A program made the position numbers and the translations under genes. A stretch of DNA of 64,000 nucleotides from a virus, in IMG/VR virus record IMGVR_UViG_3300045541_000131, positions 1 to 64,000 of that record. One strand, written 5' to 3'. Shown here one piece after another: positions 12,467-52,999 of this stretch. How positions within the stretch are numbered: position 1 is the stretch's first letter; the number at the start of each line of letters is the position of its first letter. Below the pieces are notes generated by a model. The model made no database searches and was not told the DNA's origin. It saw only the letters and a list, made by a program, of their open reading frames with translations.

Positions 12467-12509
12467 ATTATGTATAGGTATTTATAGTTCGACGCCGCTA
12501 AATACTCTT

Positions 12510-12824
12510 ATGAAAACTGCACTTTTAGCTGGTATATTTGCTCTTTTTTCTACAGGCGCTTTTGGGCAAATAGTTGTTCAACGACCCATAGTTTGCGGTG
12601 ATGCAACGGCAGTTTTTTCAGAAATCACTGGCAAAGATATTAAAGAATCTCCCCAATGGACTGGACTTAGTGACAGCGGCAACAGTGGTTTTGTACTTTT
12701 AGTAAATCCAAAAACTAAAACATGGACTTTTATACAATTTGAAAAGTCAACAGCCTGTATTTTGGGATTGGGCAAAGAATCCGATTTTAGGGATTTAACT
12801 GTAAATCCAAAGCCTAAAGATTAA
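12510..12824 (+). CDS. secreted hypothetical protein
   Basis: Signal peptide; TAAATA at 12499-12504 supports ATG 12510. Confidence 0.6.
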   Translation: MKTALLAGIFALFSTGAFGQIVVQRPIVCGDATAVFSEITGKDIKESPQWTGLSDSGNSGFVLLVNPKTKTWTFIQFEKSTACILGLGKESDFRDLTVNPKPKD

Positions 12825-46805: not shown

Positions 46806-47431
46806 AACATTTTATAGTGCTTACCGGGCCGCAAGGCTCGGGTAATCACATGTGGAGTAAAATCTTTAGCTTACATAAAGACGTCTATGGCTGGAGTGAC
46901 CTAAACAACGAATTCTGGATAGGTCACGACAGAGAACCATTTAATACTTATTGGAAAAACATTAGTGCATTAAAAGATTTTGATTGGCAGCAAAGTGATT
47001 ACTATGTTTCCAGCATCAGTGTTCCCTACATGGAAAACGGTATGGCTACTGTACCAAAGATTAATGAATTTGTCGAATGTCTAGAATCTCTGGATATCAA
47101 AGCCACTGTCTGTGTTATTGGGCGTGATAAAAATATATTGTCCATGCAAGAACAACGACTCAGACTAGCAGAAACTTATCATCAAGCTCTCGAAGTATAC
47201 CAAAACTTGCCCATGGACAAAACTTACTTTTTAAGTCACGAGTTGTTGATTTTATATAGGCATCAATACTTAAATAAAATAAGCAAAGATTTAAATTTTC
47301 CCGTCGATGTTAGTAATTCCAAAGTCGAAGACATTCTCGGCGAAAATGCAAACAAAAAATATCTAAGACCCATCGACGATCATTGGGTTGATGATTTAGC
47401 AAGAAATAGTTCAAGGAAATGGCATGACTAA
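46802..47431 (+). CDS. P-loop/sulfotransferase-like protein
   Basis: VLTGPQGSGNH.WSKIFS.H. Confidence 0.55.
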   Translation: MKHFIVLTGPQGSGNHMWSKIFSLHKDVYGWSDLNNEFWIGHDREPFNTYWKNISALKDFDWQQSDYYVSSISVPYMENGMATVPKINEFVECLESLDIKATVCVIGRDKNILSMQEQRLRLAETYHQALEVYQNLPMDKTYFLSHELLILYRHQYLNKISKDLNFPVDVSNSKVEDILGENANKKYLRPIDDHWVDDLARNSSRKWHD

Positions 47432-48275
47432 AAAGATTTTGATTATGGGTTTACCCGGTGCCGGCAAGACTTATTTTGCTGAGCGTCTCAAAGCTTGGCT
47501 CGAACGCAACGGCGAAGCATCTGCAGAGCGTTTAAGTCAATACGAGATGTTACCCAGTGCTATGGAACTACGAGCAAAAGTAGATTGGTTCAATGCCGAT
47601 GATGTTCGCAGAAAATACAACGACTGGGACTTTAGTAAGGAAGGTCGTATTCGTCAAAGTTTACGTATGTTTGAATTTGCGCTTCGTTGTAGCGGCGAAT
47701 ATGTAATCTGTGACTTTGTTGCACCTTTGCCCGAAATGCGAGCAAACTTCAAAGCAGACTGGACAATTTGGATTGACACTATTGATGCAGGTCGTTATGA
47801 AGACACTAACAAAGCATTCGTAGCACCAGATGTCTATGACTTCCGCATCACTGAACAAAACGCAGAGAAGTGGGTAGAGTTTGTGGGTCAACATATCATT
47901 GAAGATCGCCGTAGACCAGTATTTGACTGGCGCAAAGAAACTGTACAGATGTTGGGTCGCTGGCAACCATGGCATCCAGGTCATCGTGCTTTGTTTGAGC
48001 GTAGTATTGCTAAAACAGGACAGGTTTGCATCATGATTCGCGATTGTCAAGGTTGGAATGGATCAAATCCTTTTGACTTTGAACAAGTAAAGAATTTTAT
48101 CAAGCGTGATTTAGATCCATTATATCAAGGCCAATATACTATTCAACTGGTGCCTAATATTGTAAACATCACTTATGGCAGAGATGTTGGCTATAAGATT
48201 GAACAAGAAGTGTTCGATGATGCCACACATGCTATCAGTGCTACAAAAATTCGTAAACAAATGGGCATAGAGTGA
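47424..48275 (+). CDS. adenylyl-sulfate kinase-like domain fused to HxGH nucleotidyltransferase
   Basis: GLPGAGKT, NADDVR...DFS.EGR; GRWQPWHPGH...ISATKIR. Confidence 0.8.
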   Translation: MTKKILIMGLPGAGKTYFAERLKAWLERNGEASAERLSQYEMLPSAMELRAKVDWFNADDVRRKYNDWDFSKEGRIRQSLRMFEFALRCSGEYVICDFVAPLPEMRANFKADWTIWIDTIDAGRYEDTNKAFVAPDVYDFRITEQNAEKWVEFVGQHIIEDRRRPVFDWRKETVQMLGRWQPWHPGHRALFERSIAKTGQVCIMIRDCQGWNGSNPFDFEQVKNFIKRDLDPLYQGQYTIQLVPNIVNITYGRDVGYKIEQEVFDDATHAISATKIRKQMGIE

Positions 48276-48496
48276 ACAAGTATCACATTCGGTTTAATAC
48301 CAAACACGACGGCAGTGATTTAGTTTGGCGTATCTTTGAAAATGGTGTAGAACATCTAGCAACAGATGTTCGCATCATCGGCGAAACTTATACTGAATGC
48401 ACCGAAGAGCATGGCGAAACTAAGTGGAATATAGCCTGCAAAGGTCGTTTGGTATGGGTGGATAAGGTCGCTGTGATCGTTACCGGAAAAGATTAA
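48272..48496 (+). CDS. hypothetical protein
   Basis: Coupled ORF. Confidence 0.6.
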   Translation: MNKYHIRFNTKHDGSDLVWRIFENGVEHLATDVRIIGETYTECTEEHGETKWNIACKGRLVWVDKVAVIVTGKD

Positions 48497-48699
48497 TGAA
48501 TGAATCTAATACTCGTAGTCTTGTAAAAACCGTAAGTTGGCGCTTGACTGGTTCGGGCGCCACTTTTTTGATTGCTTATCTTATATCAGGCAACTTAACT
48601 GTGGGCGGAACTATTGCTGTTATTCAGTTAGTGTCTAATACTATTTTATATTATATACACGAAAGAATTTGGAATCGTATTAATTGGGGTAAAAAATAA
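48496..48699 (+). CDS. DUF2061 membrane protein
   Basis: RSLVKTVSWR...YYIHERIW..I.WG. Confidence 0.85.
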   Translation: MNESNTRSLVKTVSWRLTGSGATFLIAYLISGNLTVGGTIAVIQLVSNTILYYIHERIWNRINWGKK

Positions 48700-48708
48700 A
48701 TAGTTTAA

Positions 48709-48805
48709 CACCTTAGGACCGTTACTCAGTTATCTGAGCCTAAGGCGTCCGGCGGCTGCTGCCGGTGTTGCCCGGATTCGCTACCCTGAGGCGCACGAAG
48801 TGAGC
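48709..48805 (+). ncRNA. candidate structured ncRNA / cis-regulatory RNA
   Basis: GC-rich intergenic island after TAAATA; stems CCTTAGG/CCTAAGG, CTCAG/CTGAG, CCGGC/GCCGG; possible pseudoknot TTCGCT/AGTGAG. Confidence 0.6.
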
Positions 48806-48819
48806 ATTTATTTTTGACT

Positions 48820-49374
48820 ATGAAAACAATTATACTTGTAGCATTACCCGAAGAACTAGACAGCAGTCTAGTTGATGTGCCCGTTGTTTATACAGGAGTG
48901 GGCATCAGCAATGCTGCTATGATGACCTATGATGCTATAATAGAGCATAGTCCAGACTTAGTCATCAACTATGGTAGCGCAGGTAGTTTGAAAAACTACA
49001 AAGGATTATTGCCTGTTAATCGTGTTTGCCAGCGTGATGCAGATTGTAGCCCGTTACGTGATCGTGGCTACATGTTAGGTGAAAATGTGTTATACTATCA
49101 TAGCGGCGAAGATGGTGTTTATTGCGGCAGTGGCAATAACTTTGTTACAAAGCCCGATACTTGGACGCTAAATCATTGCGATATTGTCGATATGGAACTT
49201 TGGAGCATAGCTAAAGTTTGCGAATACCACAATGTTCGGTGGATCAGCCGCAAATGGATCAGCGATAATGCTGATAGCGAAGCGGGAAACACATGGGAAA
49301 CAGCACTAGCAGCAGGTCAGCAAGAATTCATCAAATGGTTTAAGTCAGGTAAATATACTAATATCTGCCCTTAA
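48820..49374 (+). CDS. MTA/SAH nucleosidase-like (PNP_UDP_1 family)
   Basis: VALPEE, TGVG..NAA, INYGSAG, VDMEL..IA, KWISDNAD. Confidence 0.85.
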   Translation: MKTIILVALPEELDSSLVDVPVVYTGVGISNAAMMTYDAIIEHSPDLVINYGSAGSLKNYKGLLPVNRVCQRDADCSPLRDRGYMLGENVLYYHSGEDGVYCGSGNNFVTKPDTWTLNHCDIVDMELWSIAKVCEYHNVRWISRKWISDNADSEAGNTWETALAAGQQEFIKWFKSGKYTNICP

Positions 49375-49377
49375 ACT

Positions 49378-50658
49378 ATGAAAATCCAGCAATTAATCAC
49401 AGAAACAGTCGACGGTAAAAATCTCCATCTCGAGCATCTGGATGATGAGATTTGGAATCGTGGACATCAAGGTGCCGTTGAAGCACTACAATACTTAGAA
49501 GGTGCTGCTGGCTTATTGCTTGGATCTAGCGATCAAAAGTATTTTGCTACTAAAAAGTGGGATGGTAGCCCAGCATTGCTAGTAGGCACAGATCCCGAAA
49601 CTGGCGCTTTTGTTATGGGCGACAAAGGCATTTTTAGTGCAACAAAAGAAAACAGAATATACAAGGCCGGCGATGTAGATCGTGTAAAGCCTGACAAAGA
49701 AGTTAAAGGCCAGAAAGTAGATCGTAGTGATCTTAGAACTAAACTCAAAACAGCCTTTAACTACTTAAAAGACTTAAACTACGGCGACAAGATTTTACAA
49801 GGCGATTTGCTTTGGACACAAGGCGACGGTCAAAGCGGATTCCAAATGATCGACGGCGTTAACTATTGGACATTTACTCCTAACTTGTTAACTTATGCTG
49901 TTCCAGCCGACACACCTCTGGCACAGCGCATGAGCAAGGCTAAGGTGGGTATTGTGTTTCATACAACCTATGAAGGTGGTCCTACTCTTAAAAACATGTC
50001 GGCGAGATTTGGTGCTGACATCGGTGAAATAGGCAGCACACCTTATATCTATGTTCGTGATGCTACAATTAAAGATGTTAGCGGCAGCGTAACACTAACA
50101 CAACGCGAAAGCAACATGTTGGAAATGGCCGTTGCTGAATTATGGAACTACTTGTCGGCAATCGGTGAAGAAACATTTAAATGGTTAGAAAGTTCAGTGG
50201 CCGGGCATAGCCTACGAGACTTAATCAAGATAGACATTAACAAAATGGTTCGTGCTGGTGCCATGGATCAGCCAGAAGCGTATGTTCAGCAGTTCCTTAA
50301 GAGATTAGCTGAAAGATTGACTGCTGACATTGAAAAACTAAAGACACAAGCTGGTCAGGATCGCAAGCGTGCCGCACAAGAAGAAGCATTAAAATATATT
50401 CAGCAGCACACTGAAAGCATTGAAAATGTTTACTTGTTGTTCATTGGTATTCAGCGTGTTAAAGATGTTTTACAGAAACACTACGCAGCTATTCGTCAAA
50501 TAGATACATTTATTGCCAGACCAGATGGCAGCTTTGATGTTAAACCCGAAGAAGGTGTAGTCATTGTTGACCATTTAGGCAAAGGCGGCAAGGAAGCAGT
50601 TAAGATTGTAGACAGATTAGATTTCAGTCGCGAAAACTTTGAAAAGGCTCGAGGATGA
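49378..50658 (+). CDS. phage protein with ligase-like KWDG motif (DUF6267-like)
   Basis: HLEHLDD, KKWDGSPA, QGDLLW, EGVV...KIVDRLDFSRENF. Confidence 0.65.
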   Translation: MKIQQLITETVDGKNLHLEHLDDEIWNRGHQGAVEALQYLEGAAGLLLGSSDQKYFATKKWDGSPALLVGTDPETGAFVMGDKGIFSATKENRIYKAGDVDRVKPDKEVKGQKVDRSDLRTKLKTAFNYLKDLNYGDKILQGDLLWTQGDGQSGFQMIDGVNYWTFTPNLLTYAVPADTPLAQRMSKAKVGIVFHTTYEGGPTLKNMSARFGADIGEIGSTPYIYVRDATIKDVSGSVTLTQRESNMLEMAVAELWNYLSAIGEETFKWLESSVAGHSLRDLIKIDINKMVRAGAMDQPEAYVQQFLKRLAERLTADIEKLKTQAGQDRKRAAQEEALKYIQQHTESIENVYLLFIGIQRVKDVLQKHYAAIRQIDTFIARPDGSFDVKPEEGVVIVDHLGKGGKEAVKIVDRLDFSRENFEKARG

Positions 50659-51284
50659 GATTACTAGAATTAAAAGGCGGGCGTAGACTTATAGTCGTAT
50701 ACGGTGGCGGCTTTCAGCCTTTTCATGTGGGACACATGAGCAGTTACTTACAAGGCAAGGCAGCATTTCCTGATGCTGACTTTTATGTTGCTGCCAGTAA
50801 TGTAACCAGCGAGCGTCCAATACCTTTTACTGAAAAGAAATTTTTAGCACAACAAGCTGGTGTTAGTGATCCTGTTGTTCAAGTGGGCACTATGAGTTAT
50901 ACAAATGATGCTGGCCGTAAAGTAACCAGCACTCCATTGAATCCTTTAGAAGTTTTACAAAAATACGATCCAAACAAAGATGTCCTAGTTATTCTACGCA
51001 GCGAGCGTGATCCAATGAAGACCACAGCCACTAGTTATTATCAGCCATGGCAAGGTATGGAAGCAGCAGAACCATTCGGCGAGCATGCTTATATTTTTGT
51101 AACTAAGAAACATGACTTTACTCTCTGCGGCAAAGATGTATGTAGCGGCACACAAGTTCGTAACATGTATCAAGAAGCCAATGACAAAGAAAGATTAAAT
51201 TTAATCAAACAACTATATCCCAGTGCTACTAATGAAGTAAAAATAAAGAAAATATTAGACAGCAGATTAGGTTCAGCAACATGA
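50655..51284 (+). CDS. cytidyltransferase-like (HxGH) nucleotidyltransferase
   Basis: GGGFQPFHVGH; SGTQVR. Confidence 0.8.
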   Translation: MRLLELKGGRRLIVVYGGGFQPFHVGHMSSYLQGKAAFPDADFYVAASNVTSERPIPFTEKKFLAQQAGVSDPVVQVGTMSYTNDAGRKVTSTPLNPLEVLQKYDPNKDVLVILRSERDPMKTTATSYYQPWQGMEAAEPFGEHAYIFVTKKHDFTLCGKDVCSGTQVRNMYQEANDKERLNLIKQLYPSATNEVKIKKILDSRLGSAT

Positions 51285-52999
51285 AATACTTAGAAATATT
51301 CGAGCAAATGCTCAGTGAAATCAACATGAGCCCCAGCAGCCTAAGAACACTGGCCAGCCAGATTGATGCTCGTGCTGGCATGGAGTTCGAAATGTTAGTG
51401 CCAGGTGTTGGTGGTGCAGATGAAGAAGGCGACATGGAACCCGACTACGGTGCCGACGAGCGTATTCGTAGATTTGGTGATATTAGAGACTTTTTCTATG
51501 ATGGTAACTTCAATAGTCGTCGCGATGTAGAGAGTTTAATGGATGAAATCTGGAACGATTACGCGGACAGCGATTGGCTCAGCGAAAAGAAACAATCAGC
51601 ATGGGATGAAGTTGCCGAAGATCATATCCGTGATTTAGTAGAGCGTGACTATGGTGATGAATATTTAGAACAAGCTGAGGAAGAAGCCAAAGATCAAGCA
51701 CCGGAATTCGGCATGAACGCTGAAGAACTACAACAAGCTGTACAGGTTCGTTATAAAGAATTATTCCTAGACAAAGTCAACGAAATCCTCAGCGACATGG
51801 GCGACGACTACGACAAGGCCTTTGAAGAATGGCAAGACGAAGTTTGGCCTGAAATTTGGAACGACGATGACATGTTCACCGACTGGGCCGAGGAAGAAGG
51901 CATGAGAATGATGAGTGACATAACAAGAGGTTATGAAATCACATGGCCACATTGGGAATCGCCTGAAACCGAAGGTGAAATAGACATTGAACAAGTTGCT
52001 GATGAATTCGGCGATGCTATAGGCAGACCAGTTAATTGGAGCCGCAATTATCATGGCGGCAAGCGAGCAGCCAACACTTATGTGGTCGAACCCGACGGCA
52101 GTTTAGATGGCGATGATCCTGGTGATGCTGGCTTAGAATTTGTTAGCCCACCATTACCCATACAAGAACTATTAAGTGATTTGGTTAAAGTTAAAAAATG
52201 GGCCGAAAGAGCAGGTGCTTATACAAATTCCAGTACTGGCTTACATATCAATGTCAGCGTACCTGGTTGGCAAGGCAATTTACAAGACTTAGATTATGTT
52301 AAACTAGCTGTATTGTTAGGCGATGAATATATTCTAGCTCAGTTTGGTCGCAGCAGTAACACTTATACCAAGAGTGCTTTAGGCATAGTTAAAAAGCATA
52401 TTCAACAGAGACCGCAAGACGCCGAGGCTCTGCTCAAGCAAATGAAGGATCACTTAAATGCTGCTGCCAGTAAATTAATACACAGCGGCGTTACTGAAAA
52501 GTATACCAGTATCAATGTTAAGGGTGGCTATATAGAATTTCGTAGTCCTGGCGGCGACTGGTTAAATGAAGATTTGGCTACGATTGAAGCAACCTTATTA
52601 CGATTTGTAGTGGCCATGGATGCGGCAGTGGATCCCAACAAGTACAAAGAAGAATACGCAAAGAAGCTTTATAAGTTATTAGCCCCTAGCAATGACACAA
52701 CAGATACGCTACAATACTTTGCTAGATTCAGTGCTGGCACACTACCTCGCAGTGCGTTGACTAGTTTTGTTAAACAAGCACAACTACAGCGTACAATGAA
52801 GAAAACAGGTCCTCAAGCGGGCAAGCGTTATTGGTGGGATGTATCTAAGCCGGACTCAGCAGCTGGCATTAGAGTAGTAGCTGCCACGAAAGAAGAAGCC
52901 ATTGCCAAGGCACAGGGAGAATACCCAGAATGGCGATATGCTAGAAACATTGTAGCTACGCCTTCGGAAGAATACAAAGAACAGGGAGCAGGCTCATGA
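51281..52999 (+). CDS. putative amidoligase (COOH-NH2 ligase) with acidic insert
   Basis: GMEFE, PDGSL, LEFVSPP, NSSTGLHINVS, IEFRSPGG. Confidence 0.8.
   Translation: MKYLEIFEQMLSEINMSPSSLRTLASQIDARAGMEFEMLVPGVGGADEEGDMEPDYGADERIRRFGDIRDFFYDGNFNSRRDVESLMDEIWNDYADSDWLSEKKQSAWDEVAEDHIRDLVERDYGDEYLEQAEEEAKDQAPEFGMNAEELQQAVQVRYKELFLDKVNEILSDMGDDYDKAFEEWQDEVWPEIWNDDDMFTDWAEEEGMRMMSDITRGYEITWPHWESPETEGEIDIEQVADEFGDAIGRPVNWSRNYHGGKRAANTYVVEPDGSLDGDDPGDAGLEFVSPPLPIQELLSDLVKVKKWAERAGAYTNSSTGLHINVSVPGWQGNLQDLDYVKLAVLLGDEYILAQFGRSSNTYTKSALGIVKKHIQQRPQDAEALLKQMKDHLNAAASKLIHSGVTEKYTSINVKGGYIEFRSPGGDWLNEDLATIEATLLRFVVAMDAAVDPNKYKEEYAKKLYKLLAPSNDTTDTLQYFARFSAGTLPRSALTSFVKQAQLQRTMKKTGPQAGKRYWWDVSKPDSAAGIRVVAATKEEAIAKAQGEYPEWRYARNIVATPSEEYKEQGAGS

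Follow-up and report, generated by a model that had tools for sequence, protein, structure and literature searches.

A widespread family of folded phage RNAs with near-invariant segments complementary to ribosomal RNA

Introduction

The window studied here, a stretch of 64,000 nucleotides (nt) covering positions 1 to 64,000 of the IMG/VR virus record IMGVR_UViG_3300045541_000131, carries a G+C-rich segment between an open reading frame (ORF) of the DUF2061 family and an ORF for a Pfs-like nucleosidase, and the question raised by this locus is what such a segment is for. The first-pass annotation had described there a multi-stem RNA with two potential pseudoknots, could match it to no known riboswitch or ribozyme, and had offered three options: a riboswitch for S-adenosylmethionine (SAM), S-adenosylhomocysteine (SAH) or a nucleoside, a ribozyme, or a phage non-coding RNA. 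In this study, we demonstrate that positions of about 48706-48805 of the + strand (about 100 nt) are a folded, conserved RNA element that belongs to a large uncatalogued phage RNA family, widespread among the phages of lakes and also carried by jumbo phages. Direct reading of the sequence confirmed all the stems that had been listed and the placing of the TAA stop codon of the DUF2061 ORF. Among the three options, the phage non-coding RNA stood; the riboswitch became weak, and no Rfam model of a ribozyme (hammerhead, twister, pistol, hatchet, HDV-like) matches. The invariant blocks of the family are best explained by a feature that had gone unnoticed, namely their complementarity to ribosomal RNA (rRNA), and it suggests that this RNA could pair with the ribosomes of the host.

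Distribution of the family

Copies were collected with search patterns made of the blocks that the window copy shares with the copy at locus L012. The pattern GGCGGCTGCTGCC, gap, AAGTGAGC and the pattern CCTTAGGACC, gap, AAGTGAGC each retrieved at least 120 viral stretches from IMG/VR, and CCTTAGGNCCGTT, gap, GGCGGCTGCTGCC retrieved 87; among the CCTTAGGACC...AAGTGAGC matches listed, 79 were new distinct copies with a differing 13-mer. Altogether the family holds more than 200 distinct copies, of about 73-130 nt, with clear covariation and invariant loops. It was gathered by pattern scans and not with a covariance model, and very divergent members, such as the one in Limnohabitans phage DC31 described below, are not systematically included. 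The search of Rfam 15 agreed with the failure to recognise a known riboswitch or ribozyme, as nothing in the 64-kb window reached the gathering score of a model and nothing in 48600-48900 matched at E<=10, and ARAGORN found no tRNA or tmRNA gene in the window.

Outside viral contigs the element is very rare. In one genome per species from 185,579 bacterial and archaeal species, the first pattern matched 32 times, and 30 of these matches are G+C-rich coding sequence. Because only the other two carry the rest of the element, we conclude that the family is essentially confined to phage contigs. The two cellular copies lie in metagenome-assembled genomes of Flavobacterium (L223, a 6-kb contig) and Haliscomenobacter (L232, a 183-kb contig), both Bacteroidota bins, and these contigs may be phage or prophage DNA that was binned with its host. 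Among 50,697 GenBank phage records, blastn found no match to positions 48200-49400 or to a typical family member, and a single partial match, in phage DC31, to a member of class B (defined below). The sequencing runs returned for the window were all freshwater or lake-water metagenomes, none of which contained its sequence. As for copy number, the element occurs once in the 139-kb record of the window and once in each of four records of 236-355 kb, that is, in five of the six records checked. The sixth, a complete phage of 353 kb with terminal repeats, has two copies (G003:C1:76968-77015 and G003:C1:266315-266363), one of which bears an unusual loop (GGTCGCTACC) on its third hairpin.

Structure, covariation and strand

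From 5' to 3', the members of the family consist of an A-rich lead-in, three structured parts named P1, P2 and P3, the tail AAGTGAGC and about eight A/T-rich bases (coordinates of the window copy in Table 1). P1 encloses the block that we call J (consensus ACCTTAGGACCGTT) and usually an inner hairpin, P1a, that is variable in sequence and length. In predicted folds, the P1 domain is closed around J in 195 of 216 copies, and the arrangement of the window, where the 3' strand of P1 masks J, is also found in L001, L002, L006, L028 and L055. P2 is, family-wide, a 4-bp stem with a 7-nt loop, GGCTGCT. The P3 segment forms one spanning hairpin in 191 of 216 predicted folds, and its apical loops fall into classes: class A, NNNCGCTAC, in 106 of 160 copies, class B, which contains ACGCCA, in 42, and other loops in 12, including the GAGTCGTGCC form and two plain short hairpins.

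Taken on its own, the window sequence folds only modestly better than chance, and the strong evidence is comparative. The + strand has a minimum energy of -40.6 kcal/mol (z -2.38), which 3 of 200 shuffles match or better, and the - strand gives z -3.49 with none of 200; the G+C content is 0.57 at 48700-48799 as against 0.29-0.46 in the flanks. Across the family, the four positions of the P2 stem form standard pairs in 217, 217, 217 and 210 of 217 copies, with GC/CG swaps. Counting outward from the loop, the first pair is always CG (217/217), the second is GC in 148 and CG in 69, the third GC in 177, CG in 39 and UG in one, and the outer pair GC in 102, AU in 68, GU in 22, CG in 16 and UA in two, with seven copies unpaired. 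The helix closing the class A loop of P3 pairs at its three positions in 147, 147 and 107 of 155 copies (first pair: GC 116, AU 29; second pair: CG 65, GC 57, AU 15, GU 5, UA 4). In an alignment (A2) of 32 class A copies less than 86% alike, drawn from the 216 collected, the seven pairs tested are formed in 94.6% of cells as compared to 64.2% in shuffles, a value reached by none of 500 shuffles, and with slid partners pairing is at most 52%. The same alignment contains 73 double-change cells against 24.9 expected, and its covariation score of 0.760 compares with 0.218 in shuffles and at most 0.167 with slid partners. Thus, both hairpins, P2 and P3, are backed by compensatory changes, which is what the covariation check suggested with the first description of the locus has yielded.

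The two pseudoknots proposed at that time are not supported. The segments TTCGCT (48777-82) and AGTGAG (48799-804) are indeed complementary, with six pairs of which two are G-U, and RNAalifold on A2 proposed the same pairing; both sides are invariant, so that covariation can say nothing on it, and 61 of 216 copies (the 216 less the 155 of class A) have another loop with the same tail. As for CCGTT with GGCGG, the second segment is replaced by GCCGG, CCCGG or CGCGG in the 79 copies with a differing 13-mer. On a MAFFT alignment (A1), in which the variable hairpins were misaligned, RNAalifold recovered the P2 hairpin alone.

The pairs also tell which strand is the functional one. Among 217 copies the outer P2 pair is G-U in 22 and never A-C, 182 of 1791 predicted pairs in P3 are G-U, and the flanking genes lie on the same strand, with an ORF ending at most 30 nt upstream in 117 of 147 copies and one within 60 nt downstream in 92 of 152. 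As G-U pairs are common, A-C pairs nearly absent and the neighbours co-oriented, the functional molecule is RNA of the + strand.

Table 1. Features of the element and of its immediate surroundings in the window
Feature	Position	Strand	Remarks
DUF2061 ORF	48496-48699		Pfam E 8.8e-22; upstream of the element
Stop codon TAA of the DUF2061 ORF	48697..48699	+	10 nt 5' of the first conserved block
Block J (ACCTTAGGACCGTTA)	48710..48724	+	antisense to E. coli 23S rRNA 1917-1931
P1	48711-17 / 48739-45	+	CCTTAGG pairs with CCTAAGG; CCTTAGG is the 5' strand, inside block J
Hairpin P1a	48725..48738	+	CTCAG (48725-29), loop TTAT, CTGAG (48734-38)
CCTAAGG, 3' strand of P1 in the subclass of the window	48739..48745	+	masks block J by pairing
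Hairpin P2	48749..48765	+	CCGGC (48749-53) / GCCGG (48761-65); covariation, rRNA match
Segment antisense to 16S rRNA 519-528 (530 loop)	48752-48761	+	within P2
P2 loop GGCTGCT	48754-60	+	7 nt, invariant
Hairpin P3	48766..48797	+	apical loop ATTCGCTAC at 48776-84; imperfect stem about 48765-75 / 48786-96
TTCGCTACC	48777-48785	+	antisense to 23S rRNA 1929-1937; adjoins and overlaps the J target
3' tail AAGTGAGC	48798..48805	+	present in 95/98 copies collected without requiring the tail; fixed by the search patterns in most copies
Spacer and start codon	48806..48822	+	A/T-rich, 14 nt, no Shine-Dalgarno motif, then ATG
PNP_UDP_1 (Pfs-like nucleosidase) ORF	ATG at 48820	+	downstream of the element

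Complementarity to ribosomal RNA

The conserved blocks were first recognised as complements of well-known conserved rRNA stretches and then tested on the rrnH operon of E. coli K-12, which served as reference. The window copy has three exact antisense matches, of 15 nt (J), 10 nt (P2) and 9 nt (the P3 loop), at the positions given in Table 1, and its longest sense match is 9 nt, with none of 10 nt or more. In the 137 copies of A1, antisense 8-mer matches number 2532, as compared to 714 sense matches and to 899 +/- 38 (maximum 983) in 20 shuffled sets, a count which, with related copies and two pattern-fixed blocks, mainly restates the block matches. We therefore rely on the blocks one by one, for which the longest antisense run to E. 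coli rRNA was compared with 300 shuffles per block (Table 2). The match of J is far beyond chance and that of the P2 loop to the 530 loop is moderately significant. The broader idea that every conserved block is antisense to rRNA was tried and failed in this test for P3 classes C and D and for the tail.

Table 2. Longest antisense run to E. coli rRNA for each conserved block
Block	Antisense run (nt of block)	Shuffles reaching it	Remarks
Block J	14 of 14	0/300	consensus
P2 loop with closing pair	9 of 9	5/300
P3 loop class A	9 of 11	20/300
P3 loop class B, sub-form 2	9 of 12	20/300
P3 loop class B, sub-form 1	8 of 11	63/300
GGCGTC block of class B	8 of 10	38/300
P3 loop class C	7 of 14	254/300
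P3 loop class D	7 of 14	231/300
Tail	7 of 10	109/300	7-nt match to 23S 1099-1105, not significant

The arrangement of the targets adds to the matches themselves. On 23S rRNA the targets of J and of the class A loop abut and overlap, jointly covering 1917-1937 (TAACGGTCCTAAGGTAGCGAA), which we take to be the 3' side of helix 69 and its junction to helix 70; such abutting targets are predicted by no chance model. The P2 loop with its closing pairs covers 517/519-527/529 of 16S rRNA, the 530 loop. Class B loops are complementary to a second 23S stretch, 1968-1978 (GAATGGCGTAA), located 31 nt downstream of the first, and of their two sub-forms, each lengthens the match towards the opposite side of the actual 23S sequence from the other; one of them gains a ninth pair with the 23S rRNA of a Stenotrophomonas and of an Acidobacteriota genome, where C stands in place of the T of E. 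coli. The 23S target stretches are letter-identical in a Stenotrophomonas and in an Acidobacteriota genome.

Variation within the element respects these matches. Of 150 copies for which the search left J free, 119 retain its core, CCTTAGGACC; the commonest change, in 15 of the 31 variant copies, replaces an A that faces a U of the target by G, so that a G-U pair would remain. P2 stems of the types GGC/GCC, GCC/GGC, CCC/GGG and CGC/GCG leave the loop and its closing C-G unchanged, and each extends the 16S complement on one side, leaving 10-11 nt of complementarity (read by eye). For the window copy with E. coli rRNA, the predicted duplexes are of -26.2 kcal/mol for J, -24.0 for P2, -18.0 for the P3 loop and -13.8 for the tail. 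A likeness of one L012 hairpin to a conserved stretch of RNase P RNA was considered as well and dropped, this hairpin being variable among copies.

Proposed pairing with host ribosomal RNA

Based on these results, our best reading, to which we give a probability of roughly 45%, is that the element is a phage RNA that would pair with the rRNA of the host, and it may do so either in trans on the ribosomal subunits or in cis on the adjacent gene when this gene has no Shine-Dalgarno (SD) motif. In the mechanism that we propose, the RNA would be made as part of a phage mRNA from the + strand and would probably persist as a stable folded piece, whose stems drift by compensatory change and whose few exposed, near-invariant segments match universally conserved rRNA. 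These segments would pair with rRNA regions that are not locked in free or still-maturing subunits, and this pairing would alter ribosome assembly, subunit joining or the capture of ribosomes. What the data establish is the family, its fold and strand, its complementarity to rRNA and its genomic setting; the pairing and its effect are the proposed part. Helices 68-71 of 23S rRNA and the decoding region of 16S rRNA are among the last parts to settle in assembly, and helix 70 can be reached in free 50S subunits; for these reasons, free or immature subunits are plausible targets. The single copy, the varied neighbours and the arrangement in phage DC31 make us lean towards one stable RNA per phage. 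A stronger form of this idea, which we put forward only tentatively and would not expect to hold in full, is that many phage lineages keep a one-copy, dedicated anti-ribosomal RNA with three loops directed at the helix 69/70 junction and the 530 loop, which would catch free or immature subunits and so take control of host assembly or subunit joining.

Several observations weigh against pairing with rRNA. The copies share descent and most were gathered with patterns that fix two blocks, so that the invariance of these blocks is partly by construction. The matches of the P2 loop (p about 0.02) and of the P3 loop (p about 0.07) are each modest when taken singly, and the tail is invariant and has no significant match to rRNA, from which it follows that rRNA pairing cannot explain every conserved block. 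Block J, the best match, is paired inside P1 in the window and its subclass, and its UUAGG is mostly unpaired in just 63 of 216 minimum-energy folds. On the side of the target, the mature ribosome has part of the 23S stretch in base pairs and the 530 loop in folded form, which makes access uncertain, and rRNA is vastly more abundant than any phage RNA. No transcript was seen, as no RNA sequencing run containing the window was found. Finally, the element has the exposed seed complementary to a target that is expected of a trans-acting small RNA, with rRNA in place of mRNA as the target, and it is unlike the classic members of that group in having neither promoter nor terminator of its own: upstream sequence conservation is at most 0.27 bit per position from -70 to -11 in 148 copies, and no terminator is conserved. 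In the family the tail lies between P3 and the A/T-rich stretch, whereas a terminator has its T-run directly after the hairpin. A scan of 48200-49000 found no + strand promoter-like or terminator-like site flanking the window copy; the sole terminator-like site in it, at 48538-48562 (+; 10 pairs, then CTTTTTTGAT), is inside the DUF2061 coding sequence.

Alternative explanations and genomic context

Some of these points leave room for a reading in which the loops serve a purpose other than rRNA pairing, such as a compact tertiary structure, the binding of a protein, a module for RNA processing or for protection of the 3' end, or an undescribed ribozyme, the likeness to antisense rRNA being inherited from an ancestral captured fragment of rDNA. 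By eye, J and P1a together resemble an uninterrupted antisense copy of 23S 1906-1931 whose loop has drifted, and several copies keep in P1a the antisense-helix-69 stem CCGT/ACGG with a different loop. The conservation of the tail and of the class C and D loops in the absence of an rRNA match, the mutual complementarity of TTCGCT and AGTGAG, the position of the element at the ends of coding units, the pairing of J within P1 in the window and the lack of a transcript would all fit. We nevertheless consider this explanation unlikely, although it deserves to be taken seriously. Complements of 23S and of 16S rRNA are put together in the element like a mosaic, in an order collinear with neither gene, and therefore a single captured rDNA fragment is not sufficient; the two classes of P3 loop match two different 23S sites; and the Rfam search at E<=10 produced no known ribozyme or any other model.

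The genomic context raises another possibility, that of a cis-acting translation element whose folded RNA holds or recruits ribosomes by pairing with rRNA for the next, SD-less ORF (in the window, the nucleosidase-like gene), by termination-reinitiation or as a standby site. An upstream same-strand ORF has its stop codon close to J in 196 of 232 copies, at no more than about 15 nt from J in most copies. For 47 of the 232 this stop is a UAG inside J, so that translation termination falls within the most conserved segment of the RNA; in L024, L040, L042, L077 and their relatives, it is a family of small proteins ending in ...K(D/N)SP that stops at the UAG within CCTTAGG. At 107 loci an ATG follows the tail by less than 32 nt, and only eight of these have an SD-like motif, as compared to 294 of 791 other genes at the same loci. 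The window copy, with its SD-less A/T spacer of 14 nt, belongs to this group; its next ATG is 120 nt past the upstream stop. The rRNA complementarity would count for such a cis element as it does for the reading that we favour. There are also obstacles, and we judge this explanation improbable. The spacer from tail to ATG is not fixed, being of 9-31 nt with a weak peak at 12, or of 53-75 nt; at least 28 loci have the next gene 45-90 nt away, with an SD-like motif in 24 of 28 (50 of 53 in a wider tally), and a sigma-70-like promoter (TTGAC-N16-19-TAnnnT) lies within 60 nt downstream of the element in 22 of 156 copies. A single copy in genomes of hundreds of genes is unexpected for a general initiation device, the relative in DC31 follows tRNA genes and not an ORF, and the larger share of the complementarity concerns 23S rRNA, a molecule with no part in 30S initiation. 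Nevertheless, the missing SD motif in 99 of 107 adjacent genes makes us lean towards an additional or alternative role in cis, next to the pairing with subunits in trans.

A riboswitch for SAM, SAH or a nucleoside acting on the nucleosidase-like gene, as the first-pass annotation had suggested, now appears very improbable. It would be in keeping with the radical-SAM proteins (12 of 211) and SAH hydrolases (4 of 211) encoded downstream of the element, with the Pfs-like nucleosidases of the window and L012, and with the possible pairing of the tail, near the start codon, with the P3 loop. But the neighbouring proteins form 97 clusters, many unrelated gene pairs flank the element and no neighbouring protein family is constant among the copies, so that the check on downstream gene identity gave no association with one pathway, radical-SAM or SAH-hydrolase genes making up just 16 of 211 downstream genes. 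The largest clusters are a family of 254 residues that matches nothing in Pfam, with 49 members upstream and 20 downstream, and a small protein of 86 residues (60 downstream), followed by radical SAM (12), an Fpr-like reductase (11) and SAH hydrolase (5), and a fatty-acid desaturase, TctC, SNase, Endonuclease_NS and ferritin are also found. Relatives of the nucleosidase are encoded at 22 IMG/VR loci; among the 21 whose upstream 200 bases were compared, the element is directly upstream in one (L012), and at no fewer than 17 of the 22 a copy lies within 3 kb, usually before the Fpr-like reductase gene that precedes the nucleosidase. In addition, no Rfam riboswitch family matches, some copies have a promoter (the 22 of 156 mentioned above) or a terminator (L069, with a terminator-like hairpin and T-run seen by eye after the element) between the element and the next gene, and the 15-, 10- and 9-nt rRNA complements would be left unexplained.

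The remaining explanation, a site acting as DNA, for example a recombination site or a mimic of the conserved part of 23S rDNA that is a known target of homing endonucleases and group I introns, has in its favour the 15 bp of identity to the opposite strand of the 23S gene and the single copy per genome, and we regard it as the least probable of all, given that the stems keep G-U and not A-C pairs, an RNA signature on one strand, that the orientation is fixed relative to the flanking genes and that no nuclease or recombinase gene is consistently adjacent.

Comparison with known systems

Wherever the comparison can be made, the element fails the defining features of the closest known concepts. 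Ribosome-associated non-coding RNAs are likewise small RNAs that target the ribosome and not mRNA, and are often cut from longer transcripts; they are short fragments that act independently of long Watson-Crick pairing with rRNA. Those considered here are cellular (archaea, eukaryotes), whereas the element comes from phages, measures about 100 nt and is structured, with exact rRNA complements of 9-15 nt, and its binding to the ribosome is a prediction. In kissing antisense RNAs such as CopA/CopT and OxyS-fhlA, the short complementary segments are likewise presented by the loops of stable hairpins, and a pair of loops may address neighbouring parts of one target, as J and the class A loop would; these RNAs act on mRNA or plasmid-primer targets and have their own promoter and terminator, unlike the element, whose putative target is rRNA and in which neither is conserved. 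Closest to the cis role is the termination-reinitiation RNA (TURBS, for termination upstream ribosomal binding site, and the like) of caliciviruses and influenza B, which pairs with 18S rRNA (PMC3035654, PMC2793014, PMC11921876). It is a viral intercistronic structure beside a stop codon that keeps ribosomes for the next ORF through complementarity to small-subunit rRNA, and it is located upstream of the stop, with a restart that overlaps or abuts this stop. The element shares the rRNA complementarity in a structured region beside a stop codon and differs in position and in restart: it lies after the stop, with about 100 nt from stop to start, has 23S as its main target, is single-copy and often has no coupled ORF.

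One GenBank phage has a relative of the element, the cultured lake phage DC31 (PQ492658.1), which infects Limnohabitans sp. DCL3. Its genome has an array of five tRNA genes, and J with a 5' half of class B type begins 5 nt past the last gene of this array, on the same strand, in an unannotated gap of 200 nt (about 12504-12704, minus strand of the record; L322:1496-1696), which starts with a 13-nt complement of 23S 1918-1930 and folds at -50.1 kcal/mol. It has neither the GGCTGCT loop of P2 nor the AAGTGAGC tail, and it looks like a divergent or composite relative. The DC31 genome paper mentions six tRNA genes, and the words 'ncRNA' and 'non-coding' are absent from its text, the supplementary tables lying outside this statement. 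Its location, behind a tRNA array and in the orientation of the tRNA genes, is reminiscent of the species 1 and 2 RNAs in the tRNA cluster of T4 and is as expected of a co-transcribed, processed stable RNA. This likeness is one of genomic position alone: the idea that the element is a usual companion of tRNA genes was examined and rejected, as a tRNA occurs in 2 of 233 family loci and in none within 1 kb of the element. The relative does mean that a cultured phage-host pair is at hand for direct tests.

In the accessible part of the literature we found no relevant paper on a phage RNA complementary to 23S or 16S rRNA. Pairing of the loops with rRNA, if it takes place, would be a new viral route to the translation machinery, by RNA instead of protein and at sequences that no bacterium can change, and the family would add to the bacterial world a new class of RNA that lies outside Rfam 15. 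In the stronger form put forward above, it would be the first natural antisense RNA against rRNA in bacteria or their viruses, and the host could not escape it since the targets cannot mutate. Antisense inhibitors of ribosome assembly could then take such an RNA as their natural model. Should rRNA pairing turn out to be wrong, a family with covariation and invariant loops still merits a model in RNA databases.

Neighbouring genes

The commonest gene downstream of the element (60 of 211; for example L028:5258-5515) codes for the 86-residue protein without Pfam match, whose C-terminal half resembles, by eye, DNA-binding proteins of the GapR/DUF2312 type. It usually starts 45-90 nt past the element with an SD-like motif of its own, and in several copies a promoter-like site, recognised by eye, follows the element. 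In the window, the neighbours resemble metabolic cargo, with a P-loop protein like APS (adenosine 5'-phosphosulfate) kinase (47424-48275; weak Pfam hits), the DUF2061 protein (48496-48699), a cytidylyltransferase-like protein (50655-51284) and Amidoligase_2 (51281-52999); DUF6267 (49378-50658) follows the nucleosidase. DUF2061 often adjoins sulfate-activation genes.

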